In this document: positions 393 through 63,580 of the stretch, one piece after another
Layout of the letters: every line of letters begins with the position of its first letter
Position numbering within the stretch: position 1 is the first letter of the stretch
Source of the DNA: a virus
Lineage: Duplodnaviria > Caudoviricetes
Virus record (IMG/VR): IMGVR_UViG_3300021400_001148
Location: 64,001-128,000 of that record
DNA: 64,000 nt
Direction: 5' to 3' (one strand)
Position numbers and translations under genes: made by a program
Notes under the pieces: generated by a model
Databases searched by the model: none
What the model saw: the letters and a program-made list of their open reading frames with translations, nothing else
What the model was told of the DNA's origin: nothing

Positions 393-435
393 TGCGCCTG
401 GAATCAAGACATTTGTGAAAGTATTTGTATATTTG
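393..435 (+). promoter_or_regulatory. bipartite promoter TGCGCC...TATATTTG
   Basis: TGCGCC at 393 and TATATTTG at 428; the latter matches the Bacteroidota -7 box TAnnTTTG. Confidence 0.75.
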
Positions 436-473
436 TAAAAAGAAACGAGAAACTTAATTTAAAACAAAATTTT

Positions 474-899
474 ATGAAGCGTTTTGCAGACATCAAGAAG
501 GGAGACTCAGTCTACCTTATTTTCATCAACAAGGCCAATGGCTTCGGCGAAAACATCTACGAGTACAAGGTTAAGAACATCCACGCAACCTACCGCGACC
601 GTTTCGGTGAGAAGGGCAAGATGGTGAACATGGCTGGTACCTATACCCTTGAGAATCCTCGTCACCGCTCAAGGTATCTCAGGAATCTCGAACTTTCTTT
701 CGGTCCCGGTAGCCAGTTCGACACAAAGATGACCGAAAGGTCTAAGTTCATGGCCTTCACCACCGAGGACGAGGCTTCCTCTTTCTTCTCACGTTGGGTG
801 GATGACCGTGTCAACGCCCTCAATGCTGAAATCAAGCGACTCCACAAGCGTGACGAGAAGAAATGCGTCCGCAAGTACAAGGGTGAAGATAATGCTTGA
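474..899 (+). CDS. hypothetical protein; N-terminus distantly like 12918 and 44351
   Basis: 141-aa ORF after a promoter; MKRFADIKKGD resembles F.ELK.GD. Confidence 0.7.
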   Translation: MKRFADIKKGDSVYLIFINKANGFGENIYEYKVKNIHATYRDRFGEKGKMVNMAGTYTLENPRHRSRYLRNLELSFGPGSQFDTKMTERSKFMAFTTEDEASSFFSRWVDDRVNALNAEIKRLHKRDEKKCVRKYKGEDNA

Positions 900-1074
900 G
901 TTTTCTTTTTATGTGGTTTTAATACCACTTTTTATTGTTTTTTATTTGTCAATCGACTGGCCTCGGCATCAACCGGAAAACAGGTGGCTCCGGGGCCTTT
1001 CAAAAATTTTTTTGGGAATTGTTTGGCCCGTTTCAAATATCGTGTTTTTGTTTCACCTTTTAATGAGAGATTAG
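892..1074 (+). CDS. small membrane protein
   Basis: ATG at 892; two hydrophobic segments, with IVWP motif. Confidence 0.5.
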   Translation: MLEFSFYVVLIPLFIVFYLSIDWPRHQPENRWLRGLSKIFLGIVWPVSNIVFLFHLLMRD

Positions 1075-1076
1075 GA

Positions 1077-1226
1077 ATGGCAAAGTACAAAGTTGAACTT
1101 AAAATGGTCTACTATGTAGACAATGTGGTAGACAAATATGATGCAATAGATGCAGCATATGGAAAACTTCTTGCCGGCGAAGAGGCTTTCCAGAAGGAAT
1201 GCAAAAGTGAACTAATTTCAGAATAG
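1077..1226 (+). CDS. hypothetical protein
   Basis: MAKYKVELKM..., packed between its neighbours. Confidence 0.5.
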   Translation: MAKYKVELKMVYYVDNVVDKYDAIDAAYGKLLAGEEAFQKECKSELISE

Positions 1227-1228
1227 GT

Positions 1229-2059
1229 ATGGATAAATATGGAGAAATACTCCTTCTTGGTCCCTGTAGGCTGAAGTGTTTTTATTGCCTCGGCCGCGAG
1301 ATGAAAAAAGCGGCCAAGATTTCTTGCCTTGGAAAGCACTTCACTGAGTGGCCAAACTTCAATGTTTTCATACAAACCCTTTTGGATGAGGGCATCGACA
1401 AGGTTTACATTTCATCTGTGAATACAGACCCGCTTCTTTACGGATATATCAGTGAATTAATCGACTTTCTTAATACAAAGTTTAAGTATGTCGGTATTCG
1501 TATTAATGCGGCAATGCTCAATATAACAAAATATAGTCTGCTTGATAAACTCACGGAAGAAATATCAATCTCCTTAAATTCTAACCGTATTGGAAGGAGT
1601 CTTAGGATAGCGGGGCCCGCAGCCGGTCAGGAATGGCGGAATCTTTGTGAATACCTCGACACCAAACCTGGAGAAAAGCATACTATCAGGTTAAGTATAG
1701 TTGTAAACCGGCATAATGAGGATTGCATTCCGGAAATACTTGGATTTATCAGGGATAAATACTCAAAGCAAGTACAATATGTACAACTGAGAAAAGTTTA
1801 CAAATACAAAGACAAACGGCATACAAAGGAAGATTGGGAAGCATTTGAAAATACGAAGCGATGGCTTGAAGACAACAGTAGTTCTCAGGATGGATTCTAC
1901 GAATCACGAGTCTTTTCCTTCGGTGGGCTTAAAGTCTCGCTTTGGGAGGATGTTTTCTCACCGAACAGCGTTAAATCATTGAACTATTTTCCGACGGGGT
2001 TAATATCGAGAAACCATCTGCTTGTTCCCGCTTTTGAAAATGAAGAAATCTCGGACTAG
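1229..2059 (+). CDS. radical SAM protein
   Basis: N-terminal CxxxCxxC (CRLKCFYC), TDPLLY and ISISLNS segments. Confidence 0.75.
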   Translation: MDKYGEILLLGPCRLKCFYCLGREMKKAAKISCLGKHFTEWPNFNVFIQTLLDEGIDKVYISSVNTDPLLYGYISELIDFLNTKFKYVGIRINAAMLNITKYSLLDKLTEEISISLNSNRIGRSLRIAGPAAGQEWRNLCEYLDTKPGEKHTIRLSIVVNRHNEDCIPEILGFIRDKYSKQVQYVQLRKVYKYKDKRHTKEDWEAFENTKRWLEDNSSSQDGFYESRVFSFGGLKVSLWEDVFSPNSVKSLNYFPTGLISRNHLLVPAFENEEISD

Positions 2060-2208
2060 TCTCCGGGGTTTCTTTTTAGTTGTGTATCATATAGGCAGTC
2101 GCATTATTGTGACTTTTTTTTGTATATTTGCAACGCGGGATTCATCCCAATGACTAAAGCCGTGAGTTTTTTCCCGTAATTATCATAAAAAAAAAACAAG
2201 GAATTAAT

Positions 2209-2982
2209 ATGGAGCCAATAAAACTTTTGAGAGGTGATGCGTGCGAGGAATTGAGATACATCAAAGACGAGTCCGTTGATTTGGTGGTGACGAGTCCGCC
2301 ATATGATAACTTGAGGAAATACAACGGTGCTGGCGATTCTTGGAACCACGAAAAGTTTGAATGCATTGCGCAGCAACTTGCCCGAGTCCTTAAAAAAGGC
2401 GGCGTGATAGTGTGGGTTGTAAATGATAAGACCGAAAAGGGGTCAAAAACTGGCACTTCTTTCCGCCAGGCACTTTATTTTAAAGATGTGTGTGGTCTGA
2501 ACATCAATGATGTTATGATATGGAATTTGACCAACCCTATGCCACAGGTGAAGCAGCCACGATATTCCCATAAGTTTGAGTATATGTTTGTTTTCTCAAA
2601 AGGTGCACCGAAAACATTCAACCCTATCATGAGGAAAACAAAATCTGGAGGAAAACTTTATGATTCAACGGCCAAGAATATGGGCGGAGAAAGCGGGCGT
2701 CATAAACTTACTTATACAATAAATTCCGAGGCTGTTGATTACAATATTTGGGATATAGCCGTTGCACAGAACAAAACACCACATCCTGCGGTTTTTCCCT
2801 ATGAGATACCATACCGCCACATCAAATCGTGGTCTAACGAGGGTGATGTCGTCCTCGACCCGTTTATGGGGAGTGGGACGACCGGATTGGCTGCGATGGA
2901 CCTCAATCGTAAATTTATTGGTATAGAAATTAATGAGGATTACTTCACTTTAGCAGAAAACAGAATCACCGCATACAGATGA
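2209..2982 (+). CDS. site-specific DNA amino-methyltransferase, beta class (m4C or m6A)
   Basis: TSPPY catalytic motif precedes HPAVFP and DPFMGSGTT; no cognate restriction nuclease nearby. Confidence 0.92.
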   Translation: MEPIKLLRGDACEELRYIKDESVDLVVTSPPYDNLRKYNGAGDSWNHEKFECIAQQLARVLKKGGVIVWVVNDKTEKGSKTGTSFRQALYFKDVCGLNINDVMIWNLTNPMPQVKQPRYSHKFEYMFVFSKGAPKTFNPIMRKTKSGGKLYDSTAKNMGGESGRHKLTYTINSEAVDYNIWDIAVAQNKTPHPAVFPYEIPYRHIKSWSNEGDVVLDPFMGSGTTGLAAMDLNRKFIGIEINEDYFTLAENRITAYR

Positions 2983-3779: not shown

Positions 3780-4078
3780 GTGAAGAAAAAAACTACAGCC
3801 GAATTAAACTTTGGATACTTAAGGCATTTTTAAACACCCGTGGATATTTGAGATACCTGAGACTTAAAAAGAATGTATCTTATTTTGGTGGAAGGAATAA
3901 CCGGCACGGGGTGTATATGGGGAAGAGAACCTTCTATGAGACATTCAATGTTACCGGGCCGGGATATTGCTATTGGGATTCGAAACCAATAGAATATAAG
4001 TTGTGGGAACTTGGAATGTGGAAATGGAAACGCGTTGGCAGTAGCAAGTTGCGCCGTACAAAACGGTGGACGAAATAG
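3776..4078 (+). CDS. hypothetical protein
   Basis: 100-aa ORF coupled to the upstream stop. Confidence 0.55.
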   Translation: MSEEKNYSRIKLWILKAFLNTRGYLRYLRLKKNVSYFGGRNNRHGVYMGKRTFYETFNVTGPGYCYWDSKPIEYKLWELGMWKWKRVGSSKLRRTKRWTK

Positions 4079-4092
4079 TTTTTGTATATTTG
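4050..4092 (+). promoter_or_regulatory. bipartite promoter
   Basis: TGCGCC at 4050, TATATTTG at 4085. Confidence 0.75.
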
Positions 4093-4096
4093 CCAT

Positions 4097-4603
4097 ATGA
4101 AAAAAATTCTTTTTATATTGATAACTCTAATGGCTGTGTCGTGTGTCAAAAACATACCCGACAACAACTCATGCCCTACCCCCGTCTTCCATTTTCTTGA
4201 AGAAGGGGAATACACGCTTATTGGTGGTGTAAAAACGAGGTATTCATTGTCCTTTTCCGGCAGCCCGACTGACGGTTATAATTGGGTTACGGAGTATAGT
4301 AGGGAAAAGGAGCCCGACCGGTTCTGGACAGTTCTCAATTACAACGATATTCCGACACTTAAAAAGAACTTTAGTGAACTGAATTATGTTGTAATGAATA
4401 TGGTCTTTGTTGAGGGGTGGAAGATTTCTGTCTATGACAATACTGGAAAAGCATTTGATTTTACACTGAGTCAAAAATACTGTGTTGATGGTGAGCGAAT
4501 TCTTGTACTTGCATCAGAGCAAAAAACAATTGAAATTCCACACACCTTCATTGCCAAGGCCAATTTTTACATTGAAGAATACATTAAAAACAGCAAACTA
4601 TGA
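4097..4603 (+). CDS. putative lipoprotein
   Basis: MKKILFILITLMAVSC is a signal peptide II with lipobox Cys. Confidence 0.7.
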   Translation: MKKILFILITLMAVSCVKNIPDNNSCPTPVFHFLEEGEYTLIGGVKTRYSLSFSGSPTDGYNWVTEYSREKEPDRFWTVLNYNDIPTLKKNFSELNYVVMNMVFVEGWKISVYDNTGKAFDFTLSQKYCVDGERILVLASEQKTIEIPHTFIAKANFYIEEYIKNSKL

Positions 4604-8093: not shown

Positions 8094-8759
8094 ATGGAAA
8101 CTAAACTTTCAGCCACACTAATAAACAAGAAATCTCTTTTCATTATGGAAAGGGGTTCTGTCGTTTATGGGACTAATCATGAAGACAGCGATATTGACCT
8201 GATTGCCGTACTTCCGGATGAATATGGGTTGTTGATTGATGAAGTGATTAAAGTGTGTCGTTCAGAAAAATCTCACGGTGTTTGTGAGTTTCTTGATGGA
8301 AATACAGACTATGCTGTGATGACGGAATCCACTTGGAAGAGATTATTGAAAGACCATAATGTTATGGCAATAGAAGCCATCTACACACCGTGGAAGCACT
8401 TAAAAAGGGGAATTGTTTATATGATAGACACGAGGAGAAATTTCACTCTTGTCTTTTCCAAACTAAGAGAATCTTTTTCGAGAACAGCATCCAATTCGTG
8501 GGTAAAGGCGAAAAAGAAAATTGAGGTTGAGAGTGATTTGAAATCAGCACAAAAGTCTCTTTTCCATTCACTGAGAATATTAAATTTCGCCAAACAATTA
8601 TGCAAGTACCGCGATATTGTTAATTTTAGTGCAGCCAATGGATATTATGACGAAATTTTGGCGACAGAACCCAAAACATGGGAAAAATATGAAGAAAATT
8701 TTAAGAAAGAATACAACAAATTGCATTCTGATTTAAGGTCTCTTGCGCCTAAAAATTAG
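8094..8759 (+). CDS. Pol-beta superfamily nucleotidyltransferase
   Basis: GSVVYGT....SDID motif followed by a helical C-terminus (KSLFHSLRIL). Confidence 0.8.
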   Translation: METKLSATLINKKSLFIMERGSVVYGTNHEDSDIDLIAVLPDEYGLLIDEVIKVCRSEKSHGVCEFLDGNTDYAVMTESTWKRLLKDHNVMAIEAIYTPWKHLKRGIVYMIDTRRNFTLVFSKLRESFSRTASNSWVKAKKKIEVESDLKSAQKSLFHSLRILNFAKQLCKYRDIVNFSAANGYYDEILATEPKTWEKYEENFKKEYNKLHSDLRSLAPKN

Positions 8760-8786
8760 AGATTTAGAAGAAAACATGTATATTTG
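8744..8786 (+). promoter_or_regulatory. bipartite promoter
   Basis: TGCGCC at 8744, TATATTTG at 8779. Confidence 0.75.
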
Positions 8787-8803: not shown

Positions 8804-9709
8804 ATGGAAAAGAAAACTCAGACTTACACTAAAATCAACACCTTGTACCGTCGCTATGTAAACCTTAAGAACTACGATTTGCCGAACAAGGCGTGGATGG
8901 TATTCCAAAATAAGATAATCCTTGGCAGTTACTCTGATGATTATATGGGGTATATTAAGGATTTGAAATTCGACTGCTTCAGTAAAGTGGACGGCACGAA
9001 CAGTAAAATCGTTTACTTCCCCTCTACAGGCGAGTGTTTCTGTGGTGGTAAGACTGATAATGCTGATATTGTCGGTACTGGCCAGAAGGCATTCCTTGAT
9101 GAGATTATTGAAAGGATTAAGCCTATTCTTGCGGAGATTTTCCCTAAGGAGAGTGCTAAGTTCGCTCCTATGATGAATGATAAGAATCAGATAAAATATC
9201 TCAACAAGGATTTTTACGGAGAGGAAGTCGTTCCAGAAAAGAATGACATTTATGCTGTAATGGTTGAAGAAGTCCCTGTTTACATTTATGGTGAGTTCTT
9301 TGGTAAGAAGATTCAGGCCGGCGGAAACTATGATAAGGAGAAGAATCGTTTCTCTATCTTCGATATTTGTCAGCAGGGTTGGTGGGTTCCCATCGATATG
9401 CTGAATGATTATGCACAAAAGCTCGGGCTTGATGTTGTTCCATATATCGGACAGATGACCATTCCCGAGGCAGAAACCATGGTTAAAGTCGGATTTAAAA
9501 CAAGGGTTCCGAATGTCGCAAATCCAGACTACCTTGAGGAAGGCATAGTTGCCCGTCCGGTAGTTCCAATTAAAGACCCTCGCGGAAAACGGATTATTGT
9601 TAAAATTAAAACATGTGACTACCGAGAACTTCAAGATGCGATTTGTAAAGTGGGGATTGATGAGTATGAGAAGTTCAATGCGTGGTACAAAGAAAATGTT
9701 GAATCGTAA
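8804..9709 (+). CDS. RNA ligase (Rnl2-like adenylation domain)
   Basis: KVDGTN (motif I), YGEFFG (III), FDI (IIIa), EGIVAR (IV), KIK (V). Confidence 0.8.
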   Translation: MEKKTQTYTKINTLYRRYVNLKNYDLPNKAWMVFQNKIILGSYSDDYMGYIKDLKFDCFSKVDGTNSKIVYFPSTGECFCGGKTDNADIVGTGQKAFLDEIIERIKPILAEIFPKESAKFAPMMNDKNQIKYLNKDFYGEEVVPEKNDIYAVMVEEVPVYIYGEFFGKKIQAGGNYDKEKNRFSIFDICQQGWWVPIDMLNDYAQKLGLDVVPYIGQMTIPEAETMVKVGFKTRVPNVANPDYLEEGIVARPVVPIKDPRGKRIIVKIKTCDYRELQDAICKVGIDEYEKFNAWYKENVES

Positions 9710-10764
9710 TGGCTAGACTTACCAACATACCACTTATAGAAAAGATGATTTCAGAGGGATACATCACAGTGCAGAAGCATCCCTCTGAAGACATTTATAT
9801 TTACAAGTATTCCAAAGTTTGTGCGATTGCACATATGTGGAATGAAGCCACGTTGCAGTGCCGCGGAGTTATTACCGACAAGGACTACAATGTGCTTTCC
9901 CGCCCGTTTTCAAAATTCTTCAATTTAGAAGAGATAGAAGATGCTTCTATAATCCCGATGGGCGAGGCTACTGCATACGAGAAAATTGATGGTTCACTGG
10001 GTATCACCTATTGGATTGATGATGTTCCGTATCTTGCTACAATGGGTTCATTTACATCTGAGCAGGCAATTCACGGCACCAAGATTCTTCACAGTGAAAA
10101 ATACCGCAAACTGTGGGATTTCATGCGTACCAACCGTGGTTTCACTTTCCTATTTGAGATAGTGTACCCGGAAAACAGGGTAGTGGTGAATTATGGTGAG
10201 ACAGATGATATATTTCTTCTTGCAATCATCAACAATGCACACCCCGAAAATGAAATACCAATTGAACTCTATTCAAAGTATTTCCAGACACCGAAGTGCT
10301 ACGGCACATTTAAAAATTGGATTAATCTTCGTGAGGAGTTTGACGGCACTGGAAGGGAGGGGTTTGTGCTTAAATTTGAAAACGGATTCAGATTGAAGCT
10401 GAAATATAAGGATTATTTTCAAAATCATTTCCTGCGGACATATCTGACAAAGAAATCTATTTTTGATTTCTTTGAAGATGGCCGCCTCGACGAACTATAC
10501 AATCTCACTAATGATTTCGAGGAAGAAGACAAAATAATGGTGAAGTCCTACATTGAAGGATTTGAAAAAAGGCTCGAAGAGATTGAATCTGAGGCCAAGT
10601 CAGAGTATCGTGAATTTGAAACGGATAAGGAAGCGGCAGAGTATTTTAAAACTTGTAAGTGGCGGGCGATTCTTTTTGCAATGAGGAAGGGTAAACCGTA
10701 CAGGGAACTTATGATGAAGGTGCTTAGAGATGAAATTAAAAAGGAAACAAATGCGATTAGTTAA
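9709..10764 (+). CDS. RNA ligase, T4 Rnl1/RnlA-like
   Basis: CRG...RPFSKFFN, EKIDGSL, FEIVYPENRVVV.Y, EGFV and KLK motifs. Confidence 0.88.
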   Translation: MARLTNIPLIEKMISEGYITVQKHPSEDIYIYKYSKVCAIAHMWNEATLQCRGVITDKDYNVLSRPFSKFFNLEEIEDASIIPMGEATAYEKIDGSLGITYWIDDVPYLATMGSFTSEQAIHGTKILHSEKYRKLWDFMRTNRGFTFLFEIVYPENRVVVNYGETDDIFLLAIINNAHPENEIPIELYSKYFQTPKCYGTFKNWINLREEFDGTGREGFVLKFENGFRLKLKYKDYFQNHFLRTYLTKKSIFDFFEDGRLDELYNLTNDFEEEDKIMVKSYIEGFEKRLEEIESEAKSEYREFETDKEAAEYFKTCKWRAILFAMRKGKPYRELMMKVLRDEIKKETNAIS

Positions 10765-10801: not shown

Positions 10802-10844
10802 TGCGCCTGAAAAGTTGTGAACCTGAAAATTTTTCTTATATTTG
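10802..10844 (+). promoter_or_regulatory. bipartite promoter
   Basis: TGCGCC at 10802, TATATTTG at 10837. Confidence 0.75.
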
Positions 10845-13765: not shown

Positions 13766-13785
13766 AAATTTTGTATATTTGCAAT

Positions 13786-14505
13786 ATGAGAATAGATTTT
13801 ACACTAAAAGATTATTTAAAGCATCCTCGGAGGAAGGTTATAACCGGAGCCGGTGAACCGGTGAGGATAATCTGCGTGGATAAACCCGGGGAGTATCCTG
13901 TGGTGTTTTACGAAACTGAAGTATCTCACCCGATGCCGCTCGTTGCCAATGAGAAGGGGATGAACCCCTCCGATATGAAACAGTTATATTTCTTTGCTCC
14001 GGACCCGAAATTCAAGACCGGAGACTTCATTACCAGAGTCGGTTTTTCCGACAGGCGTGTTGTTGGTGTTGACAAATCGCAGATGATTTACGAGACAGTC
14101 AATGAACAGGACGTCACCAACCCCCTTCCTTTTGAAGAACAGGACAACTGGACTTTGGTGGAACTTACCGAATGGGAGAAATCTATTGTGCCGCTTCTTG
14201 GTAATAAATGCCCCCGCGTCTGCGATTTGAAGGCCACGGCTGTAAAACTCCTCAAGGCTCTGAATGCAAAACCGGACTATCCCCGTCCGGAGTCTGTGCA
14301 GGACGAACGGGACGAAGAAGAAGGCCTGTCAAAGAACTTGCTTGATTTACCAGAGTGGCATAAAGTGGGATACCTCGGGAGCGAGTTGAAGAATTTTTCC
14401 CTTGACGGAGAAGAACCCGACCTCTGGCTTTATCACGGCGGGTACAGAATCAGGGTCAAGGATTTGGTGGAAAAACTCCCCGGTAGAAACAAACTCGATA
14501 GATAG
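13786..14505 (+). CDS. family J protein (related to 21156)
   Basis: RIICVD..YPVV..DLPEW..L.EKLPG; preceded by TATATTTG at 13774. Confidence 0.65.
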   Translation: MRIDFTLKDYLKHPRRKVITGAGEPVRIICVDKPGEYPVVFYETEVSHPMPLVANEKGMNPSDMKQLYFFAPDPKFKTGDFITRVGFSDRRVVGVDKSQMIYETVNEQDVTNPLPFEEQDNWTLVELTEWEKSIVPLLGNKCPRVCDLKATAVKLLKALNAKPDYPRPESVQDERDEEEGLSKNLLDLPEWHKVGYLGSELKNFSLDGEEPDLWLYHGGYRIRVKDLVEKLPGRNKLDR

Positions 14506-16873: not shown

Positions 16874-16916
16874 TGCGCCTGAATTGGAAAACTCTCTTTC
16901 GAAATTTGTATATTTG
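16874..16916 (+). promoter_or_regulatory. bipartite promoter
   Basis: TGCGCC at 16874, TATATTTG at 16909. Confidence 0.75.
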
Positions 16917-25497: not shown

Positions 25498-25540
25498 TGC
25501 GCCGAGAGTAAATGACTCTCGGACTTTTTTTGTATATTTG
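25498..25540 (+). promoter_or_regulatory. bipartite promoter
   Basis: TGCGCC at 25498, TATATTTG at 25533. Confidence 0.75.
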
Positions 25541-36599: not shown

Positions 36600-39500
36600 C
36601 TATTCAATCGCAATTATTGTTGAATACTTATTCGAGGGGTCCTCCCCTTCATAGTCACCCACACCTTCACCTTCTATCCACCTTACGACAAATGGACTAT
36701 ATGGTGTATTGATGTTATGTCCATCACATTCAAGAGTATGTGGATACAGGTCTTGGTATGTCATGTCCATTGGTAATAAACCGCCGTACATGTTTGAGCT
36801 ACCATCTGCGTAAAATTTGTATTCCACTCCCTCATATTCCACTGTTACTCCAACATCTTCCCAATATTGGTCGGGGTTATCATTATCTCTCACTGCTTGT
36901 ATGTAGTTATCCATTGTATCAACTCCGGCGTTATGCATTGACATGTACAAGCCATACTCATGGAAATCATCAAAATATATTTTTGCTATCGCAGAAGAAT
37001 GTTCTTGAATTGGTGTGCTTGAGTATTCCAATGTTTTAACGCATATTAACCTATAATCTACGTCAAGGTTATCGGTATATATATCACCCATCTCGTCCGG
37101 ACTACCATTAAATACAACAGCAAAAGGACAATAATGGTTATTCACGTTTGCTTCCATAGAGTTATTGTACAATGTTGTGTAGTCAAGATTTTTCGGTGCC
37201 AAGGCGTATATACTGTTTCGATTTTCGCCAGCGTTAAATCCCACCCACACGCGATATTCCGCGCCTTCATATTCCATAACATTGCAAGTCGGCATAAATA
37301 TATTCGTTCCCACATGGTCGGCGGCACTCATATTGTTGCAAACATCAGAGATATATTCCTGAATATTATTATAGCCAGATTCCTCTGCATATGTATTGCC
37401 ACCTTGTCCATCTTCAAAGTCATCAATATATAACGCGGCTATGTATCCACCACTAGCATCACCTTCGGTTCCTAAAATATAATCTAATTCAGACAATGAT
37501 AAACTTCTTATTTCACTTATATCGGCAAAGATTTTTTGCAAACTGTTATTAGAAGAAGGATTTGTCCCATTGTATCCACCAACCCCATAGAGGTAAGCGT
37601 TACCGTTCTGCATTATTTCAAAGGCGTTTTTGGTATCCGCCGTAGACGTACCAATACCAATAGAATGCTGAGTATTTCCTGAGTGACCGTAATCGAGTGA
37701 AAAAGTGTTGGATTTATTGAAATATCCCTCTGCATGCTCAAAAAGGTTCCGTGTTGTTGTGTTGGCACCTTCCGCATGAGAATAACCTCCGTTTGCTGTT
37801 GTACGATAACCTTCCGCATGAGAACAAGTGGCACTTGCTTTTGTGCGGTCACCTTCTGCATGAGAGGTATACCCGCTCGCCCTTGTGATATTTCCTTCGG
37901 CATGGGAAAAATTACCACTTGCAATTGTGGCGACTCCTTCCGCATGAGAATTCTCACCACTTGCGATTGCGCCATTACCTTCTGCATGAGAGGTATACGC
38001 GCTCGCCCTTGTGTTATTTCCTTCGGCATGGGAAAAATTACCACTTGCGATTGCGCAATAACCTTCTGCATGAGAGGTTGTTCCAGATGCAGTGGTGTCT
38101 TGTCCTTCTGCGTGAGAATACCAACCGAGTGCCTTGACAGACAATCCTTCCGCATGGGAATAATTACCGGCAGCATAATTGGCACTATCTGTGTCCATGG
38201 ATTCAGTATAATATTCAACCCCGGTGCTTAATGTCGCGCCACTCGCATTGAATAATACACCAAATATGTAAGTTTCGTCAACTTGTACTTCGGAGTCACA
38301 AAATACTGCATCAGTTATGACAGCAATTGGATGCTCGTGGTCACTATTTAAGTATACCATTGAACCGTCACGGGGACTATTCCAATCTCCCCAAAAATAA
38401 TATTCGAAAGACCTACCATAATGTTGCTGGATTGCCTGTTTTTCGTTATCGGTAAGTTCGGTTATTTGTGATTCAATGGTACTAATTTCACCGGAGCCTT
38501 CAGCGACCGCAAATTCACCCGACGCGATTGAATTACTTCGGCGCAATACAGCACTATGTTCACCCGTTCCCGCTTCAAATACATTCCCAGTATCCAAATT
38601 TCCAGAACCGAGGATTGAAACCCCATTAACAGTCTTGATATTTGTTCCACTGACGAGAGTATCTTGCTTCCCACTCACGACATTTTGCAATGTATTTGAG
38701 GTGCTTGCTGTTGCATTGGTACCATCATAACCACCGACGCCATATAAGTAAGTGTCACCATTCTGCATTATTTCAAAGGCATTCTTAGTATCAGCAGTTG
38801 ATGCACCAATGCCTATCGAATGTTGCGTGTTACCTGAATCGCCGTAGGTGTTAGAGGATTTATTGGATTTGTTGTAGCGTCCCTCTGCGTGTTCAGCCTC
38901 GTTTTGGGCTGTCGCATGTTCCCCTTCTGCATGAGAGCCGTATCCGGATGCCGTTGTCCCGACTCCTTCTGCATGAGAGCCGTATCCGGATGCCGTTGTC
39001 CCGACTCCTTCTGCATGAGAGCAGTATCCGAATGCCTTTGTCTCGTCTCCTTCTGCATGAGAGCATGTGTTGGATGCTGTCGTGTAACTACCTTCCGCAT
39101 GAGAGGATACCCCAGATGCTGTTGTGTGGTCACCTTCTGCATGAGAACCTGACCCGGATGCTGTCGCATGTTCCCCTTCTGCATGAGAGCCTGACCCGGA
39201 TGCTGTTGTTGCATTGCCTTCCGCATGCGATGCTCTACCAGTGGCGAAAGTTTTTTCACCTTCCGTATGTGATGCGATTGCTTGTGCTAGTGTTGCATTT
39301 CCTTCTGCATGAGCATAAGCACCAACTTTGGTATATGTTCCACCACTTAATGTGTTCTGGCTATCATTTCCACCAGTCTTTGTGTTAAATCCTTCGGTGT
39401 GTGAATCCTGCCCAGTAGCTTGTGTATTTTCACCTTCTGCATGTGCAGCCTGATTTAAGCTCATGGAACCTTGTCCTTCTGCGTGAGAGTAAAAGGCAAC

Positions 39501-42305
39501 AGCTTGTGTGTTATATCCTTCTGCGTGACCTGCTCTTCCTTTAACAAGCGTATACCATCCCTCCGCATGTCCTTGCATAGCTTGAACTTTAACCTGGTAG
39601 CCCTCGGCGTGTCCTTCTTCTTCGAGAACCTCATTTGAAAGTCCTTCCACATGCGAATAATTCCCGGAAGCTACATTTTGTTTTCCTTCAACATGAACAC
39701 CCTTTACGACAATACCATTCTTGGATATTTTATTACGGCAACCCTCCACATGAGAATAAGGGGCTTCTATAATAACGTTTCCTTGACCCTCAACATGTGA
39801 GCCCGTAGACTTTGTGTTGTAAAGTGAACCATCTGATGATGGTGGAACTTTTGTCGTATCACTGCCAAGATAATTGAGAGCACCTTCTATATGTGCATAA
39901 TTGCTTTCAACTGTATTTGTATATCCTTCTGCATGCGATGCGGTTCCAGAAGCCTCGGTTGATTGTCCTTCGGCGTGTGATGCAATTCCTGATGCTGTCG
40001 TTCCCGAACCTTCAGCAACTGAACTAACTCCACTTGCTACCGCACCACTTCCTTTCTGCTGAACACTATTTTCGCCGGAACCCGATTCCCAAAGAGAATC
40101 ATTTTCTAAAGATTTGATAACCTCCTGAACTGTTTTAGATGGTTTTGTTTCATCGGTTTTTAAATTGTTTCCTTCATAATCCCCAATACCATATAGATAG
40201 GCATCGCCATTCTGCATGATTTCGAAAGCATTTTTTCTATTAGCATCATCTCTACCTATACCTACTGAATGTTGCGTATTTCCTGAAGAGCCATAAATGT
40301 CTGAATGCTTGTTGGATATATTGTAGATTCCCTCTGCATGCTCAGTCTCGTTTTGGGCTGTTGTATTATACCCTTCTGTATGAGAGTTGTATCCGGATGC
40401 GGTGGTGTTTTCTCCTTCTGCATGAGAGGTTGTTCCGGATGCTGTTGTATTAAACCCTTCCGCATGAGAGTGGTATCCGGATGCGGTGGTGTTTTCTCCT
40501 TCTGCATGAGAGGTTGTTCCGGATGCTGTTGTGTGGTCACCTTCTGCATGAGAGTGGTATCCGGATGCCGTTGTATTATACCCTTCTGCATGAGAATCAT
40601 CTCCAGTTGCATTTGTTGTATTACCTTCAGCATGAGAGTTGTATCCGGATGCGGTGGTGGAACTACCTTCTGCATGAGAGTGGTATCCGGATGCCGTTGT
40701 ATTATACCCTTCTGCATGAGAATCATCTCCAGTTGCATTTGTTGTATTACCTTCAGCATGACTTGCACTACCTAACGCAGTAGTACCAATGCCTTCACTA
40801 TGTGATGCGTAACCTTTTGAGCCTGAATTTGATGAATAATAATTTACTTGAGAAATTATAAATTCAACATTCGCAGTCTTTTTATTCCCAATTCCTAATT
40901 TTTCAGATAATTGAAACCATTTTGAACCACCAGTGTATACAGCTGTTACTGTTATTCCTCTATCCGAAACATCAACCCCATTTAATTTGTATAGCATACA
41001 GCCTACTGAATAGACATCCGCAGCTGATGTACCTTCAGTTGTTTGATACAATCTAGTTTCCGTTGCAGCGGCTTTTATTGTGTCACTAATTGGTTGACCT
41101 GTTACTATAATTTTATAGCCAATCCCTTCAGCATGAGAATACCTACCTTCTGCTCTGGTATAACCTCCCTCTGCGTGCGAACCAACTCCCTGCGCAACAG
41201 TTTCAACTCCTTCAGAGTGAGATGATGCACCCTTTGCAGAATTGCTAAATCTACATTTTACATTAACGAATTCGTCCCCTTCTGTATCATTTGGAATATA
41301 ATCAGATAGATTAAGGTAGGTAGATATGCCATCTTCAGCTTCAATATTCTCAATATAAATAATTTTATCAAAATCTACAGTAGATGCACCAATGTTCAAA
41401 TGGCACAAATCGCCTGCATTTTGAACAAGAATGTATCTAGCAGATTCTCTATCAATTCGACGTAATGTTACCAATACTTCAGATTCGTGTTCATAGCCTC
41501 CCTCTTTATGAGAGCCATATCCTGTAGCAGAACCGCCTCTACCTTCGGAATGTGCAGCAGTTCCTACTGAGTAAGTACTATACCCTTCAGCATGTGCACC
41601 ATTACCATTAACTTTAGTTTGAAAACCTTCTGAATGAGCACCCTCTCCTTTCTCTACTTTGGTATAATATCCTTCAGAATGAGAAGAATTACCGGCGGCG
41701 ATTGCCCCAATACCCTCCGAGTGACTTCCGGAACCTTCTGACTTTGTTCCAAGACCTTCCGCATGAGCCCCACGGCCTGATGCCTCTGTATAAATAATAG
41801 TCTGTTCTCCTGTTTCTTTCCAATTACTATCATCAGTTACTGCTATAGAACCTTCTGCATGAGCTCCTTGACCTGATGCGTTTGTACCAATACCTTCGGC
41901 ATGTGATTTTTCACCACTTGCTTGAGTCTGTTGAGTATCTATGGTTCTTTCATCATCTTTGCCTTGGTGATATAATATCGAAGTACCACCATTCTCTGCA
42001 TGTGAATCTAAGCCTGATGCTATTGTTTCATGACCTTCGGCAACACTATTATCTCCACCAGCAACTGCCCCGGTTCCTTTTTGCTGAACACTATTTTCAC
42101 CAGAGCCTTTTTCCCAAATATCCTCTCGGGGCCCAAAAGTAACTATTTCATCACTGTCATTTTTAATAAACAAACCCTCCGTTCCTTCGTGGTAGTTCAG
42201 CGCTATTTCACCGTACTCTAAATCTATTGGTTGGGGAATTTTTCCTTCCCCTTCTGAAAGTGTTTCGTTGGAGCGTTTTAGCAATACAGTATATTTTTTT
42301 GCCAT
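36600..42305 (-). CDS. ~1900-aa tail fibre/adhesin with SHAEG (YadA-head-like) repeats
   Basis: N-terminal LKRS..P...L.YGEIALNY anchor. Blocks of 14-aa SHAEG..T.ASG repeats are closed three times by TQHS.GIG...KNAFEIMQNG.AYLYG. Alternative start at 42323. Confidence 0.8.
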   Translation of the reverse strand: MAKKYTVLLKRSNETLSEGEGKIPQPIDLEYGEIALNYHEGTEGLFIKNDSDEIVTFGPREDIWEKGSGENSVQQKGTGAVAGGDNSVAEGHETIASGLDSHAENGGTSILYHQGKDDERTIDTQQTQASGEKSHAEGIGTNASGQGAHAEGSIAVTDDSNWKETGEQTIIYTEASGRGAHAEGLGTKSEGSGSHSEGIGAIAAGNSSHSEGYYTKVEKGEGAHSEGFQTKVNGNGAHAEGYSTYSVGTAAHSEGRGGSATGYGSHKEGGYEHESEVLVTLRRIDRESARYILVQNAGDLCHLNIGASTVDFDKIIYIENIEAEDGISTYLNLSDYIPNDTEGDEFVNVKCRFSNSAKGASSHSEGVETVAQGVGSHAEGGYTRAEGRYSHAEGIGYKIIVTGQPISDTIKAAATETRLYQTTEGTSAADVYSVGCMLYKLNGVDVSDRGITVTAVYTGGSKWFQLSEKLGIGNKKTANVEFIISQVNYYSSNSGSKGYASHSEGIGTTALGSASHAEGNTTNATGDDSHAEGYNTTASGYHSHAEGSSTTASGYNSHAEGNTTNATGDDSHAEGYNTTASGYHSHAEGDHTTASGTTSHAEGENTTASGYHSHAEGFNTTASGTTSHAEGENTTASGYNSHTEGYNTTAQNETEHAEGIYNISNKHSDIYGSSGNTQHSVGIGRDDANRKNAFEIMQNGDAYLYGIGDYEGNNLKTDETKPSKTVQEVIKSLENDSLWESGSGENSVQQKGSGAVASGVSSVAEGSGTTASGIASHAEGQSTEASGTASHAEGYTNTVESNYAHIEGALNYLGSDTTKVPPSSDGSLYNTKSTGSHVEGQGNVIIEAPYSHVEGCRNKISKNGIVVKGVHVEGKQNVASGNYSHVEGLSNEVLEEEGHAEGYQVKVQAMQGHAEGWYTLVKGRAGHAEGYNTQAVAFYSHAEGQGSMSLNQAAHAEGENTQATGQDSHTEGFNTKTGGNDSQNTLSGGTYTKVGAYAHAEGNATLAQAIASHTEGEKTFATGRASHAEGNATTASGSGSHAEGEHATASGSGSHAEGDHTTASGVSSHAEGSYTTASNTCSHAEGDETKAFGYCSHAEGVGTTASGYGSHAEGVGTTASGYGSHAEGEHATAQNEAEHAEGRYNKSNKSSNTYGDSGNTQHSIGIGASTADTKNAFEIMQNGDTYLYGVGGYDGTNATASTSNTLQNVVSGKQDTLVSGTNIKTVNGVSILGSGNLDTGNVFEAGTGEHSAVLRRSNSIASGEFAVAEGSGEISTIESQITELTDNEKQAIQQHYGRSFEYYFWGDWNSPRDGSMVYLNSDHEHPIAVITDAVFCDSEVQVDETYIFGVLFNASGATLSTGVEYYTESMDTDSANYAAGNYSHAEGLSVKALGWYSHAEGQDTTASGTTSHAEGYCAIASGNFSHAEGNNTRASAYTSHAEGNGAIASGENSHAEGVATIASGNFSHAEGNITRASGYTSHAEGDRTKASATCSHAEGYRTTANGGYSHAEGANTTTRNLFEHAEGYFNKSNTFSLDYGHSGNTQHSIGIGTSTADTKNAFEIMQNGNAYLYGVGGYNGTNPSSNNSLQKIFADISEIRSLSLSELDYILGTEGDASGGYIAALYIDDFEDGQGGNTYAEESGYNNIQEYISDVCNNMSAADHVGTNIFMPTCNVMEYEGAEYRVWVGFNAGENRNSIYALAPKNLDYTTLYNNSMEANVNNHYCPFAVVFNGSPDEMGDIYTDNLDVDYRLICVKTLEYSSTPIQEHSSAIAKIYFDDFHEYGLYMSMHNAGVDTMDNYIQAVRDNDNPDQYWEDVGVTVEYEGVEYKFYADGSSNMYGGLLPMDMTYQDLYPHTLECDGHNINTPYSPFVVRWIEGEGVGDYEGEDPSNKYSTIIAIE

Positions 42306-42360
42306 AGAATAAATGATTTTCATATAAATATCTGCTGAAAAAAAATTCTCGCATCTTCAT

Positions 42361-42534: not shown

Positions 42535-42577
42535 TGCGCCAGAATCCGGGAGGAAATTGAAATTATTTGTATATTTG
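42535..42577 (+). promoter_or_regulatory. bipartite promoter
   Basis: TGCGCC at 42535, TATATTTG at 42570. Confidence 0.75.
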
Positions 42578-42639
42578 CAACACGGGACTAAAGTAGTGGG
42601 TTTTCTCCCGTAATTATCATAAAGAAAGGAGGAAAATAA

Positions 42640-42948
42640 ATGAAGTACATTAACACAGATAGACTGATTGCTGAGATAGAAAGGCGAAAGAAAGAGATTT
42701 TTGAAATTGGCGATGACACATTTGAGAACAGATGGGTTTGTGGCTCACTTGATGGTATCAAAGCATTTGCCATATCTCTCCAGCAGGAGCAGCCGGAGGT
42801 GGATTTCGAGAAGGAATTAAAAAACGAGAGGACTAAATTATTGGATGCGTTTGGTCCAATGAACGGAGAGCAATGTCTTGCTATTAGGAATTTTGCTCGT
42901 CACTTTTACGAACTTGTTAAAACCGCAAGAAAGGAGGAAAGTAAATGA
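42640..42948 (+). CDS. family B protein
   Basis: First 19 aa identical to 29791; SLQQEQPEVDFEKE..FYEL..ARKEE. Confidence 0.75.
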   Translation: MKYINTDRLIAEIERRKKEIFEIGDDTFENRWVCGSLDGIKAFAISLQQEQPEVDFEKELKNERTKLLDAFGPMNGEQCLAIRNFARHFYELVKTARKEESK

Positions 42949-49974: not shown

Positions 49975-50532
49975 TTTCCGTATTCTCCGTAACACCATTT
50001 TAACGGAATAATAAAGATGCGGACTTTTTCCGTGAATAGAATAGTATGAAGTCGGTGTTTCCCCGGGGTACGGATGTGGTTGACAGTCAGGATGTTATGC
50101 GGAAGCGCTTTGGGGGCCCCGGGGAAAAATAGGGGAAGAAAGTGGAAGAAAATGGAAAAAAGTGGAAAAATTGGCCTTCCGAACTGCGGCTCGTGCGGCC
50201 GCGACCCCCTGGAAACAGTAAAAAATTATTAAGTTACGAAAAAAAATCGACATATCCCCGGGGCCCGGCGCAATTCAATCAGCGGCGAAGTCCTTTCCGC
50301 ATTCAGCACATTTTATCGGAATATATTCTGCACAATATTTTATTTTTGTATATTTGTATAACCCCGGGGGTCCGGCAGTTTCCTTTTCCCCTGACCGGTA
50401 TTATTCCCCGGGGTTTTTATTATAATGGAATACGTTCGGCTACATAAGGCTGCAATTGTCAAAAGGTCGAAAAATCATCTATAGGAAATTCCGGAAAAGA
50501 GGGTATTTTATTGTCAAAAGGTCGAAATTCAG

Positions 50533-53366: not shown

Positions 53367-53521
53367 CTCTATGCAAATATACAAAAAATATTTGGAATTG
53401 TGAATAAAAGACCCCGGGGGAAAGATGCCTTTATTAAAAAAAAGCGCACGATGGAGAACATACTTCACGGTTAAAATTAAATTCGCCCCCTGCTTGTGCC
53501 TACTACTTTCTTTCGACATTA

Positions 53522-53564
53522 TAAAGATACGAAAAATATTACTGACTTTACCGGCCTCGGCGCA
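53522..53564 (-). promoter_or_regulatory. bipartite promoter (variant box TATCTTTA)
   Basis: TGCGCC 35 nt upstream of the box. Confidence 0.6.
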
Positions 53565-53674: not shown

Positions 53675-53717
53675 CAAAGATAGCAAAAAAATCTGAGAAC
53701 CCCGGGGACTGGGCGCA
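53675..53717 (-). promoter_or_regulatory. bipartite promoter
   Basis: TGCGCC and TATCTTTG, 35-nt offset. Confidence 0.7.
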
Positions 53718-53833: not shown

Positions 53834-53876
53834 CAAATATACAAAAAAATTTTCAGACTTTGCCGTGTACGGCGCA
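53834..53876 (-). promoter_or_regulatory. bipartite promoter
   Basis: TGCGCC and TATATTTG, 35-nt offset. Confidence 0.75.
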
Positions 53877-56593: not shown

Positions 56594-56665
56594 TTGCCCC
56601 ACCCCGAGTTGAACAGGGATTACTGGTGCCAAAAACCAGTGTAATTACCGTTATACGATAGGGCA
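56594..56665 (-). tRNA. tRNA-Gln(UUG), CCA not encoded
   Basis: Acceptor TGCCCTA/TGGGGCA; anticodon arm CTGGT-TTTTGGC-ACCAG; T-loop GTTCAA. Confidence 0.85.
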
Positions 56666-57754: not shown

Positions 57755-57797
57755 CAAATATACAAATAAATTCCGGAATAATGCCCAGAGTGGCGCA
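57755..57797 (-). promoter_or_regulatory. bipartite promoter
   Basis: TGCGCC and TATATTTG, 35-nt offset. Confidence 0.75.
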
Positions 57798-59298: not shown

Positions 59299-59299
59299 A

Positions 59300-59614: not shown

Positions 59615-59633
59615 ATCTTGTTCTTCTTTGTTA

Positions 59634-59676
59634 CAAAGGTACAAAAAACTCTCCGGACTATGGCGGATTTGGCGCA
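59634..59676 (-). promoter_or_regulatory. bipartite promoter
   Basis: TGCGCC and TACCTTTG, 35-nt offset. Confidence 0.75.
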
Positions 59677-59920
59677 GCGTATGCGGATGTTACAAAAGTG
59701 GTGTTTACAAATGTAACATTCGAAAATGTAACATAAGTAATTGTTACAGAGGAAGTTATAAAAAAATATATTAAGTTACGAAAAAATTTTGAAACATCCC
59801 CCGGGGTAGGCGCAAGGAGGAAATGTCGGCACAAACAACTAATATAACAAAAAAATTTGGGACCCCCGGGGAGTTAGGCGCAAAAGTGGCAGCCCCGCTT
59901 GCGCCTAAAAAGAAAACGGG

Positions 59921-60896: not shown

Positions 60897-60916
60897 AACT
60901 TTTTCCTTTTGTATTA

Positions 60917-61014
60917 CAAAGATAAGGAAAACATTTGATACTTTATTTGTTTTGGCGCAGCGAGGGCAGCCACCCTTGCGCCTAAAAGAAAATGGTACTC
61001 GTCTGAGTACCATT
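60917..61014 (-). promoter_or_regulatory. repeated junction: hairpin, GGCGCA..TGCGCC inverted repeat, promoter
   Basis: Related copies at 59876, 61773, 62490 and 63516. Confidence 0.75.
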
Positions 61015-61714: not shown

Positions 61715-61735
61715 AGTCCTTTTCTTTTTGTTACT

Positions 61736-61833
61736 CAAAGATACAAAAAAAAGTCCGAGACGTCCAAACATTAGGCGCAACCGCGGCAGCCACCCTTGCG
61801 CCTAAAAAAAAAATACGGGCCGAAACCCGTATG
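61736..61833 (-). promoter_or_regulatory. repeated junction with promoter (36-nt offset across an A run)
   Basis: ATACGGG/CCCGTAT hairpin, AGGCGCAA..TTGCGCCT and TATCTTTG. Confidence 0.75.
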
Positions 61834-61834
61834 T

Positions 61835-62428
61835 TTAAAACTCTTTCTGATAGTTGATTGCCACTTCCTTGTTTTCATCGTCGGTGGCATTTGCACACGC
61901 ATCGAAAATCAGCCAAGCAAGTTTGCGGTCGCGGGATGCAGTGCGGTGTTCCTCTTCAGTGTCATCCACAAACATCTCGTCCCACCACATATTGATTGCG
62001 GTGTCGCTGAGTTTTCTAAGTTGCTCCTTGATGCTTTCATCTTGTTTGAGCTCATCAATGTCAGCATCGCACGGACCGGAATGATATCCCTTTTCAATCT
62101 GTGCGGGGGTAAGGATGAGGTCAATAGGGAATGAGGAGCCACTTGAAACCATATAGGCAAGACCAAGACTCACGAGATAATCGTACTCTGTGATAACCTT
62201 TTCTTCGTGGTTATCATCCCCGAAAATGGTGTCAATTTGGGCGTCTTCCCTTGAGCCGTAGGCAACCCAATCCCCGTCCTTGTCCGCCCATTCAAACGCA
62301 CGGCCGGTCTTTTCGTTGATGATAACAAAATTGACTTTGGAATCCTCAATGTATTCGTTTATACTCTTACCGAGGCTATTTGCCTTGTCCTTGAGCAGTG
62401 TGTAAATTTTCTGTGAAAGTCCTAACAT
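61835..62428 (-). CDS. acidic hypothetical protein
   Basis: Start after the promoter. Confidence 0.65.
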   Translation of the reverse strand: MLGLSQKIYTLLKDKANSLGKSINEYIEDSKVNFVIINEKTGRAFEWADKDGDWVAYGSREDAQIDTIFGDDNHEEKVITEYDYLVSLGLAYMVSSGSSFPIDLILTPAQIEKGYHSGPCDADIDELKQDESIKEQLRKLSDTAINMWWDEMFVDDTEEEHRTASRDRKLAWLIFDACANATDDENKEVAINYQKEF

Positions 62429-62453
62429 GATTCTGTCCTTTTTGATTACATCA

Positions 62454-62550
62454 CAAAGATAGTATTTAATTTCGTGATGGTGTTGGATTAGGCGCAAAGC
62501 CGGCAGCCACCCCTGCGCCTAAAAGAAAACCCCGGTGTGCTCCGGGGTAT
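62454..62550 (-). promoter_or_regulatory. repeated junction with promoter
   Basis: ACCCGG/CCGGGGT hairpin, inverted repeat, TATCTTTG at 35-nt offset. Confidence 0.75.
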
Positions 62551-62553
62551 CCT

Positions 62554-63006
62554 CTATCGCATAAATTGGATGATGGTTTCAAGGTCGGTGTCATCAGCCA
62601 CCTTCATCAAATAATCATAGGAATATTTGTCCCAATCGAAATCGCTGAGGTAGACTTCTTCCGTGCCGTTGAAAATTTCCTTGTCCACCATTTCTTCCCA
62701 GTCCCGATAATAGAGGGCTTTCATAACCCAGCCGAGTTTATCCCAAGGGGCGGTGGCGAAAATCTTGTTTATTTTCTCGACAAGTTCGGGGTTGTGCCCG
62801 TTAGTGGTGTCCATTGCGTTGGAAATCCTTGTACAAGCAACCTGCCCAGAAGAAAGATTGTCAAAAATTTCGGCCTCGAAAAAAGTATCCCTTGAAGCAT
62901 CCACCATGTATCTTGCTTTCTCAATAGCATCACTCCTATTTTTTGCACTGACAATCTTATTTACCTGCGTGTTGTAAAAAAGTGTTACGCTGTAGAGTTG
63001 TTCCAT
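62554..63006 (-). CDS. acidic hypothetical protein
   Basis: 150-aa ORF. Confidence 0.6.
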   Translation of the reverse strand: MEQLYSVTLFYNTQVNKIVSAKNRSDAIEKARYMVDASRDTFFEAEIFDNLSSGQVACTRISNAMDTTNGHNPELVEKINKIFATAPWDKLGWVMKALYYRDWEEMVDKEIFNGTEEVYLSDFDWDKYSYDYLMKVADDTDLETIIQFMR

Positions 63007-63009
63007 TTT

Positions 63010-63303
63010 CTATTCCTCCTCTTCATCATTGTTTTCGTCTTCATCCTCATCTTCGTCCTGAGGGCCGTATTCATATTCTTCCCAGTTGTCGTAGCCGAGG
63101 TGCTGAGCAATGAAATTCCTTTCAAACCAAAGGAAATCATTGATTGCAGTTTTAGTCGGTGGTTCATCGCTATCGCAAAAGCATTCGTCAATGAACGATT
63201 CTACGGAATCCACATCGCCTTTTTCGATAAGAGTGTCGAGGGTGTCTCTTCCACCGCTCCAAGCCTCGAAGTGCTCAAGGTCTGTTTCCACCAAGTATTT
63301 CAT
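63010..63303 (-). CDS. very acidic conserved phage protein
   Basis: FEAWSGG.DTL...T.INDFLWFE and a D/E-rich tail. Confidence 0.65.
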   Translation of the reverse strand: MKYLVETDLEHFEAWSGGRDTLDTLIEKGDVDSVESFIDECFCDSDEPPTKTAINDFLWFERNFIAQHLGYDNWEEYEYGPQDEDEDEDENNDEEEE

Positions 63304-63479
63304 ATGCTTTTTACTGCTTTGATTAAACTTTTCTTAAAGTACTCCCGTGCGTATTTGGCAATAGCCTTTTTCTTCGCACTTGCAAGGTCTTTGGCCTCGA
63401 TGGTGTAGGTCTCGCAAGGCCCGTAGTGGTAATCCACAAAAATTTCGAATGTCTTCATATCTTGTTCCCTTTTGTATTA

Positions 63480-63580
63480 CAAATATAGTGAATGTATTTC
63501 AGAGATTGTCCGGCCAGGCGCAAAGTGGGCAGCCGACCTTGCGCCTAAAAGAAATGCCCCGGGAAAAGGAGCCCCGGGGC
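63480..63580 (-). promoter_or_regulatory. repeated junction with promoter
   Basis: GCCCCGGG/CCCGGGGC hairpin, inverted repeat, TATATTTG at 35-nt offset. Confidence 0.75.

Follow-up and report, generated by a model that had tools for sequence, protein, structure and literature searches.

This locus raises the question of what reads a short DNA word that recurs at a rigid distance ahead of promoters in a phage genome. The window, the whole stretch of 64,000 nucleotides (nt) that was analysed, corresponds to genome bases 64001-128000 of the complete, 354,809-base-pair (bp) phage record IMGVR_UViG_3300021400_001148, which has terminal repeats and belongs to a T4-like phage, presumably of rumen Bacteroidales, with gp23, gp20 and PolB genes. 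An earlier note on this DNA reported that the hexamer TGCGCC starts 35 nt before the -7 box of Bacteroidota promoters, TAnnTTTG, and proposed a binding site for a phage activator acting on host RNA polymerase, analogous to the T4 MotA box. Our analysis shows that the TGCGCC promoters are a real, strongly non-random and phage-clade-specific promoter class of a new kind, the mechanism of which we infer. The hexamer is most probably a phage-specified upstream promoter element that is read by a phage factor on the host core polymerase; that this factor is a dedicated activator, separate from sigma and sited one DNA turn upstream of an empty -33 site, is a reading to which we give slightly less than an even chance.

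The window holds 15 matches to TGCGCC-N29/30-TAnnTTTG, where the expectation from 100 shuffles is 0.03. TAnnTTTG alone is found 62 times against 62.4 expected and is not enriched, so the signal lies in the coupling of hexamer and box; TGCGCC alone is enriched (32 against 14.8 expected). The genome-wide gapped-motif scan that had been proposed as a check returns 68 exact copies, and none for a reversed-pattern control. When gaps from 0 to 60 nt are allowed across the whole genome, 65 pairs fall at 29 nt, three at 30 nt and one at 21 nt, all other gaps being empty, and the reversed control gives three scattered single matches over all gaps. A chance origin of the pairs is rejected by the shuffles, the reversed control and this gap histogram. 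Almost all of the 68 copies lie immediately 5' of an open reading frame (ORF) on the same strand, and 64 of them fall within a single arc of the circular map, 327-354 kilobases (kb) plus 0-150 kb; the 150-327 kb block, which carries gp23, gp20, PolB and nrdD, has the other four.

Of the pairs noted earlier at a 35-nt offset, all seven on the plus strand and seven of the eight on the minus strand match TGCGCC-N29-TAnnTTTG exactly. In the eighth, 53564/53529, hexamer and offset are as noted and the box, TATCTTTA, departs from the pattern by one mismatch. The pair 61779/61743, placed at a 36-nt offset, matches with N30. We refer to promoters with GCGCC at about -45 as class A; those of the window, with protein lengths in amino acids (aa), are as follows.

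393..435, plus strand: class A, TGCGCC-N29-TATATTTG; precedes a 141-aa ORF (474-899)
4050..4092, plus strand: class A; box, then 4 nt, then ATG of a 168-aa ORF; predicted leaderless mRNA
8744..8786, plus strand: class A; precedes two RNA ligase genes (8804-9709, 9709-10764); unchanged in five strain variants
10802..10844, plus strand: class A; three spacer substitutions in strain variants, with hexamer, box and spacing all kept
16874..16916, plus strand: class A; hexamer directly after the stop codon of a RecD2-like helicase gene (TAA-TGCGCC)
25498..25540, plus strand: class A; 29-nt spacer includes an intrinsic terminator, with hairpin CCGAGAGT/ACTCTCGG and a T run
42535..42577, plus strand: class A; a conserved stem-loop (leader or small RNA) comes next, with a near-identical copy at genome 348211 (minus strand)
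53522..53564, minus strand: near-copy, TGCGCC-N29-TATCTTTA; box with one mismatch
53675..53717, minus strand: class A, box TATCTTTG; exact pattern match
53834..53876, minus strand: class A; exact pattern match
57755..57797, minus strand: class A; precedes a 151-aa ORFan
59634..59676, minus strand: class A, box TACCTTTG; precedes a 104-aa ORFan
60917..60982, minus strand: cassette-type class A, GGCGCA-N5-GGCTGCC-N5-TGCGCC-N29-TATCTTTG; after the T run of the preceding unit
61736..61802, minus strand: cassette-type class A, 30-nt spacer; precedes a SprT-like gene
62454..62519, minus strand: cassette-type class A; exact pattern match
63480..63545, minus strand: cassette-type class A; exact pattern match

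Conservation and distribution of the element

Strain variants of the phage (97-100% identical), compared for substitutions only, show no change at 426 aligned hexamer positions or at 568 box positions, against substitution rates of 0.6% in the spacers and 1.2% elsewhere (these counts are not independent). Over the 68 sites of the genome, strong conservation is limited to the hexamer and a preceding T or C, the spacer sequence being free. We also searched JGI metagenomes with the cassette form of the promoter, described below, and obtained more than 100 stretches. Among them, 34 without blastn similarity to the phage, nearly all from rumen by record name, carry 2-17 promoters each, and the gap from GCGCC to the box is 29 nt in 219 cases, 30 nt in three and 28 nt in one. 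The base before GCGCC is T in 136 promoters, A in 64, C in 9 and G in 2. Where a promoter runs into the end of the gene before it, the word is AGCGCC, which often shares that gene's stop codon. At least 118 of these promoters lie outside the search pattern and are therefore unbiased observations. Their spacers have about 36% pairwise identity, and what the metagenome arrays have in common is the regulatory unit, not the genes.

The phage carries an IS1595 transposase, the closest relatives of which (up to 82% identity) are found in ruminant Bacteroidales metagenome-assembled genomes (MAGs), and we used these relatives to choose five candidate-host MAGs, adding 201 Bacteroidales genomes from across the order. 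The five MAGs hold 0-2 hexamer-box matches each, the same as controls; the 201 genomes hold 0-7 each, similar to the control, against 192 per megabase in the phage. A host promoter element is thus rejected for this sample. These background counts support a phage-specific element, as do the 15 related jumbo phages described next, none of which has it.

In 16 relatives from IMG/VR with major capsid proteins 55-87% identical, seven of them complete at 295-412 kb, there is no TGCGCC-type site save one chance match. With the core relaxed to GCGCC, the closest relative, a 58-kb late-region fragment, has one convincing AGCGCC-N29-TATATTTG, and the other 15, including the seven complete genomes, have no real sites at box spacing. 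Relatives with RNA ligases 81-86% identical use canonical -33/-7 promoters. When viral contigs at large were scanned for the motif, the matches listed were all single chance ones, and a scan for the dyad of the cassettes gave six chance matches, in high-GC phages; searches of IMG/VR with sigma248, the helicase and an alignment of the sigma339 clade (both sigmas are introduced below) found no related loci. These comparisons show the element to be specific to phage.

Promoter geometry, classes and cassettes

In Flavobacterium johnsoniae the -7 element spans T-12 to G-5, with the transcription start 4-5 nt past the box, the -33 to -7 spacing of Bacteroidota promoters is 19-21 bp with the -7 consensus TAnnTTTG (TAHHTTTG), and leaderless mRNAs are uncommon (PMC6847099). 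All 68 sites carry TAnnTTTG by construction of the search; its two free positions are never G, and T or C followed by A stands directly 3' of the box. With the start site placed from the box, TGCGCC would occupy about -47 to -42, centred on -44.5. In nine class A promoters and five promoters without the hexamer, an ATG stands exactly 4 nt past the box (TATATTTG-CAAT-ATG; window 4093-4099 and 13782-13788, and genome 13197, 17012, 34047 and others). This constant distance in 14 promoters would fix the register of the start site and fits a start at the A of the ATG, and the 14 promoters are predicted to give leaderless mRNAs.

The -33 element is missing. Only one of 59 class A promoters, and none of 48 of class B, has TTTG 19-21 nt ahead of its box; the relative G003 has it in 32 of 76 (42%), and the class A promoters of the metagenomes in 1 of 223. 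The non-late promoters of the phage are therefore of two types, neither with a -33 element: class A, with GCGCC at -45, and class B, in which TTTG abuts the box (TTTTTG-TATATTTG) and of which different filters give about 35-48 copies. Four boxes reported to lack the hexamer, and taken to define a second class, do form a separate class in our analysis.

2123..2130, plus strand: class B, TTTTTTTTG-TATATTTG; without hexamer and without -33 TTTG; the stem-loop RNA seen at 42578 also stands 3' of this box
13774..13781, plus strand: class B; box, then 4 nt, then ATG; predicted leaderless mRNA
50349..50356, plus strand: class B; without hexamer
53374..53381, minus strand: class B; without hexamer

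Class A promoters outside cassettes have cores identical to those of class B and look like class B plus a site, whereas cassette promoters mostly lack the class B core, and their box is often TATCTTTG. In the 150-327 kb block, many genes have TATTTAT at 20-35 nt ahead of their ATG. We rejected the idea of a further, -10-like element 17 bp past TGCGCC, because no hexamer is conserved at that place. A crude k-mer search of the leftover intergenic regions, based on rough ORF calling, gave no fourth promoter class for two phage sigmas.

A stem-loop of about 50 nt, CGGGAyTCAyCCC..CTAAAGyyGTG..TTTTyTCCCGTAATTATCATAAA, lies directly 3' of three promoters, with copies at window 2131-2190 and 42578-42640 and at genome 248.5 kb (plus strand) and 348.1 kb (minus strand). 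This repeat is either a small RNA or a conserved leader, and within the window no Rfam family matches it at gathering score.

About 36 copies, on the minus strand at genome 124-150 kb (including window 60.9-63.5 kb), have the extended form GGCGCA-N5-GGCWGCC-N5-TGCGCC. Here a terminator stem-loop and a promoter are repeated between small variable genes (window 59.6-64 kb, genome 124-150 kb), and the boxes sit after the T run of the preceding unit. The dyad GGCGCA-N17-TGCGCC is found solely in these cassettes of this phage, and half of all sites are single, 32 of the 68 being lone hexamers outside any cassette. The metagenome form is GGGCWGCCC-N4-TGCGCC, the inverted GGCGCA arm being peculiar to this phage. 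In 13 copies (nine single-hexamer, four cassette) a terminator-like hairpin with a T-rich tail lies inside the 29-nt spacer, and the stem often begins within the hexamer (window 25498-25540; genome 17012, 19375, 27233, 51310, 54350, 172784 and 202516). The terminator and the next promoter therefore overlap, and the spacer length is held at 29 nt regardless of this cargo. Two further copies in the window are decayed.

59839..59905, minus strand: decayed cassette copy with full dyad plus TGCGCC, a 30-nt spacer with hairpin and T run, and box TATATTAG; also placed at 59839-59882
59771-59814, minus strand: decayed copy

The idea that the dyad arms pair into a hairpin, in RNA or in DNA, was also rejected. 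The variant arms AGCGCA, TGCGCT and GGCGCG are never compensated, so the dyad is not maintained as a hairpin, and the distal arm is missing in other lineages. Cassette leaders are conserved (TAnTGTAATCAAAAAGGAAnnATATG) across arrays without any gene in common (L378, L406, L409 and L423), which suggests a shared translation-initiation or RNA signal.

GATC is absent from the 355-kb genome (G000), in which about 1,000 copies are expected, and from the 58-kb relative G001; CCWGG stands at 0.3 of expectation in G000, and GCGC is depleted outside the promoter elements, which hold 101 of its 307 occurrences. These patterns look like restriction avoidance. The promoter boxes contain GCGC and GCWGC, both typical sites of C5-methyltransferases; methylation of the boxes is conceivable.

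Candidate readers of the element

No RNA polymerase beta-type domain was detected in the phage, and the T7-type search was uninformative; with no phage polymerase gene detected, host core polymerase must be used. In the mechanism that we propose, for which start site, protein binding, activation and timing are all inferred from sequence, this polymerase and a sigma would read the -7 box and start 4-5 nt past it. In place of the missing -33 TTTG contact, a phage-encoded DNA-binding factor would occupy (T/A)GCGCC at -47 to -42, a helical turn further upstream than sigma region 4, and recruit or stabilise polymerase like a class II activator or T4 MotA. The factor would read its 5-6 bp site as a monomer-sized unit, with the rigid 29-bp spacer reflecting a fixed protein-protein geometry, and cassette arrays would add a second upstream box (GGGCWGCCC; in this phage also the inverted GGCGCA arm). 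At the outset of infection, host holoenzyme alone would read the class B promoters (TTTTTG-TATATTTG); class A would be switched on or boosted once the factor is present, and late genes would be served by the TATTTAT promoters. The separate factor possibly works together with sigma339.

Several observations weigh against such a dedicated activator. The phage encodes two RpoD-like sigmas, both with regions 1.2, 2 and 4, and no other promoters are assigned to them. A 5-6 bp single site at strict spacing also resembles a sigma -35 element. The complete genome has no match to MotA/AsiA (PF09158, PF09114, PF09010) at E<=1, although structural analogues are possible, and none of 27 phage proteins compared with Pfam, including ORFans driven by class A promoters, neighbours of sigma339 and proteins common only to GCGCC-positive contigs, has a DNA-binding domain. 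Finally, contigs with a sigma gene of the subclade nearest to sigma339 (40-56% identical) have (T/A)GCGCC-N29-box promoters without -33. Of the earlier proposal of an activator on host polymerase, the phage-specific element and the rigid spacing are borne out, and the promoters are without the -33 element; the two phage sigmas allow another option. A search for the reader among proteins that the phage shares with GCGCC-positive contigs and that are missing from negative genomes left a short list with no recognisable DNA-binding domain.

That other option is that sigma339 replaces host sigma-A, with its region 2 reading the -7 box and an altered region 4.2 helix reading GCGCC, in a cascade that would run from host sigma on class B through sigma339 on class A to a gp55-like factor on TATTTAT; we consider it unlikely, though the main rival. 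Sigma339 (339 aa; genome 169686-170705, minus strand) aligns with RpoD over its length, and the class B promoter of its gene would permit early synthesis; in one lineage the gene of this subclade has tandem class B and class A promoters. Its 4.2 helix has diverged, reading GPMRVKQ against TRERVRQ in host sigma-A, and the change hits positions matching E. coli R584, E585 and R588, which presumably take part in -35 reading, as in sigma-70/-35 structures. In the sister phages, -33 TTTG stands at its canonical distance and carries an extension of its own in each lineage (TTTTGTTT in G003; ATTTGGCCA, with 38 copies, in G008; AATTTGGAA in G012), and the sigma339 orthologues have 4.2 helices reading TSERIRQ, DEMTINQ, TDAGVNN and TKERVRQ; these relatives, with very different helices, also have different elements (TTTGGCCA in G008, ATTTGGAA in G012, TTTTGTTT in G003). 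Sigma248 (248 aa; genome 337220-337966, plus strand; L009:1354-2100:+) is without region 3, has host-like region 2.4 and 4.2 helices, and has orthologues in all seven complete relatives searched; a third sigma candidate has a weak region-2 match (17.5 bits, below the cut-off). This gene set fits the 'group 2' jumbo phages, which are thought to redirect host polymerase using their own sigmas (Iyer et al., PMC7824862).

The best argument for direct reading by sigma339 is the presence of the GCGCC promoters on contigs of its own subclade, but this co-occurrence may merely reflect shared ancestry. GCGCC lies about 12 bp upstream of the position of region 4, and the region 3-4 linker of sigma339 is no longer than the host's, and the elements of the relatives stand at the canonical -33. 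The helix varies among GCGCC-positive lineages (PMRVKQ, PARVVQ, KTRIMQ, PTRVQQ) whereas the DNA element is invariant, lineage L483 has TGCGC(C/T) alongside a canonical TTTGG at -33, and dyad-type extra boxes are ill-suited to a monomeric region 4. We favour a separate factor over region 4 because of the helix differences, the L483 arrangement and the added dyad-type boxes, because the 29-bp spacer is 8-12 bp longer than sigma-70-type spacing (17 bp in E. coli, 19-21 bp in Bacteroidota), and because non-cassette class A cores equal class B cores.

About half of the copies head small ORFan cassettes built of terminator, dyad, promoter and conserved leader, and metagenome arrays share this unit with different genes, an architecture that matches PeSL/PmSL (PMC4122927). 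GCGCC could accordingly be an operator, insulator or recombination signal of mobile cassettes, kept because the terminator-promoter unit moves whole, but we regard this as improbable: the single hexamers precede ordinary genes, in many cases running into the stop codon before them or housing a terminator in the spacer, and still keep exactly 29 bp, which points to polymerase contact; spacers as divergent as those of the metagenomes show that the unit is not simply copied DNA; and the uncompensated dyad arms show no selection for a hairpin. A final candidate is an UP-element-like contact, in which the host alpha C-terminal domain would read GCGCC after modification by the phage or via a host factor. 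In E. coli promoters the proximal UP subsite lies at this same position, -47 to -42, and the phage is related to T4, in which Alt and ModA ADP-ribosylate alpha. Known UP elements are A/T-rich, however, and host genomes are without such an arrangement, so that unmodified host proteins are unlikely readers; we think this explanation very improbable.

Returning to a phage factor at -45, a broader reading is that the promoter grammar has been rewritten in a whole clade of T4-like jumbo phages that infect rumen Bacteroidales, with -33 dropped everywhere and GCGCC read by an undescribed phage factor, maybe together with a phage RpoD-like sigma whose region 4 has given up the host mode of DNA reading. 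We offer this tentatively, as plausible but short of probable.

Two side observations concern sigma339. In the sister phages G003, G008 and G012, each with its own -33 extension and its own region 4.2 helix, this variation may represent sigma-promoter co-evolution. Divergent from the sigma339 gene lies the gene of a very acidic 154-aa protein with a CxCPxC..CxC cluster (genome 170786-171250, plus strand; L010:2082-2546:+). It has a TATTTAT (late-type) motif, its homologues are found only in GCGCC-positive contigs, and the protein has no Pfam or PHROG match; that it is a late anti-sigma is pure speculation.

Neighbouring features, significance and known systems

Elsewhere in the window, strain variant L286 has an insertion of about 2.4 kb (L286:2763-5139) relative to window 3910-3912, a short way upstream of the promoter at 4050 (class A); the insertion encodes a protein of resolvase/MerR type and one like IS605 OrfB/TnpB. 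Within the otherwise plus-strand early region, a minus-strand block includes the gene of a 1907-aa protein (36600-42323, minus strand) that has YadA-head repeats and is probably an adhesin-like fibre. A tRNA gene lies at 56594-56665 on the minus strand (Rfam RF00005, 51 bits).

Little is known about gene timing in Bacteroidota phages, and in this 355-kb genome a single short element separates the promoters into distinct classes. If the broader reading above is true, sigma appropriation would have been invented a second time, independently, with the unusual polymerase of Bacteroidota as its target and hundreds of mobile cassettes as its carriers. If they work as proposed, the promoters would offer an orthogonal, switchable system for engineering Bacteroides and Prevotella and a sequence tag for early or middle genes of the phage clade in metagenomes. 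They would also be a case of co-evolution of promoter grammar and transcription factor among sister phages, with TTTGGCCA, ATTTGGAA or TTTTGTTT at -33 in some and GCGCC at -45 here. In the literature searched, we found no TGCGCC or -45 element tied to Bacteroidota or phage promoters, and no activator-type or sigma-appropriation system for the sigma-ABfr polymerase.

The closest parallel in logic is with the middle promoters of T4 (MotA/AsiA), likewise a T4-like phage, in which a host-type downstream element is kept, the host upstream element is absent and a short phage box at fixed spacing marks a subset of non-late genes. The analogy drawn earlier with the MotA box holds to this extent and fails in the particulars. 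The T4 box, TGCTT, sits at -30, replacing the -35 element in place, whereas GCGCC lies at -47 to -42, and our phage has RpoD-like sigmas and no MotA/AsiA homologue. With position, sequence and proteins all different, the TGCGCC promoters are not a member of the T4 middle-promoter family.

The packaging resembles PeSL and PmSL, the composite terminator-promoter cassettes of T4-type phages (Arbiol 2010, PMC2839356; Comeau 2014, PMC4122927), which are also repeated units between small ORFans of a plastic, lineage-variable region. PmSL is the Mot-box version, so that promoters of the activator type can be cassette-packaged too. PeSL has near-consensus -35/-10 elements, in contrast to the absent -33 and new -45 box seen here, and our element also heads ordinary genes outside cassettes. 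Class II activation and that of lambda PRM share a site adjoining the -35 position, rigid spacing and a weak or incomplete core, but they use a dyad of 16-22 bp near -41.5, whereas our promoters mostly have a single site of 5-6 bp.

Phage sigma cascades (SPO1 gp28, phiEco32 gp36 and the group 2 jumbo sigmas, PMC7824862) are similar in their sigma-70-family proteins, the lack of a phage polymerase and distinct temporal promoter classes. They differ in having spacers of 16-18 bp and their own -10 elements, in place of the host -7 box and the 29 bp observed here. The Bacteroidota sigma-ABfr promoter (-33 TTTG / -7 TAnnTTTG) has the identical -7 element and apparently the same distance from box to start; in the phage, its -33 is replaced by TTTG abutting the box in class B and by GCGCC at -45 in class A.

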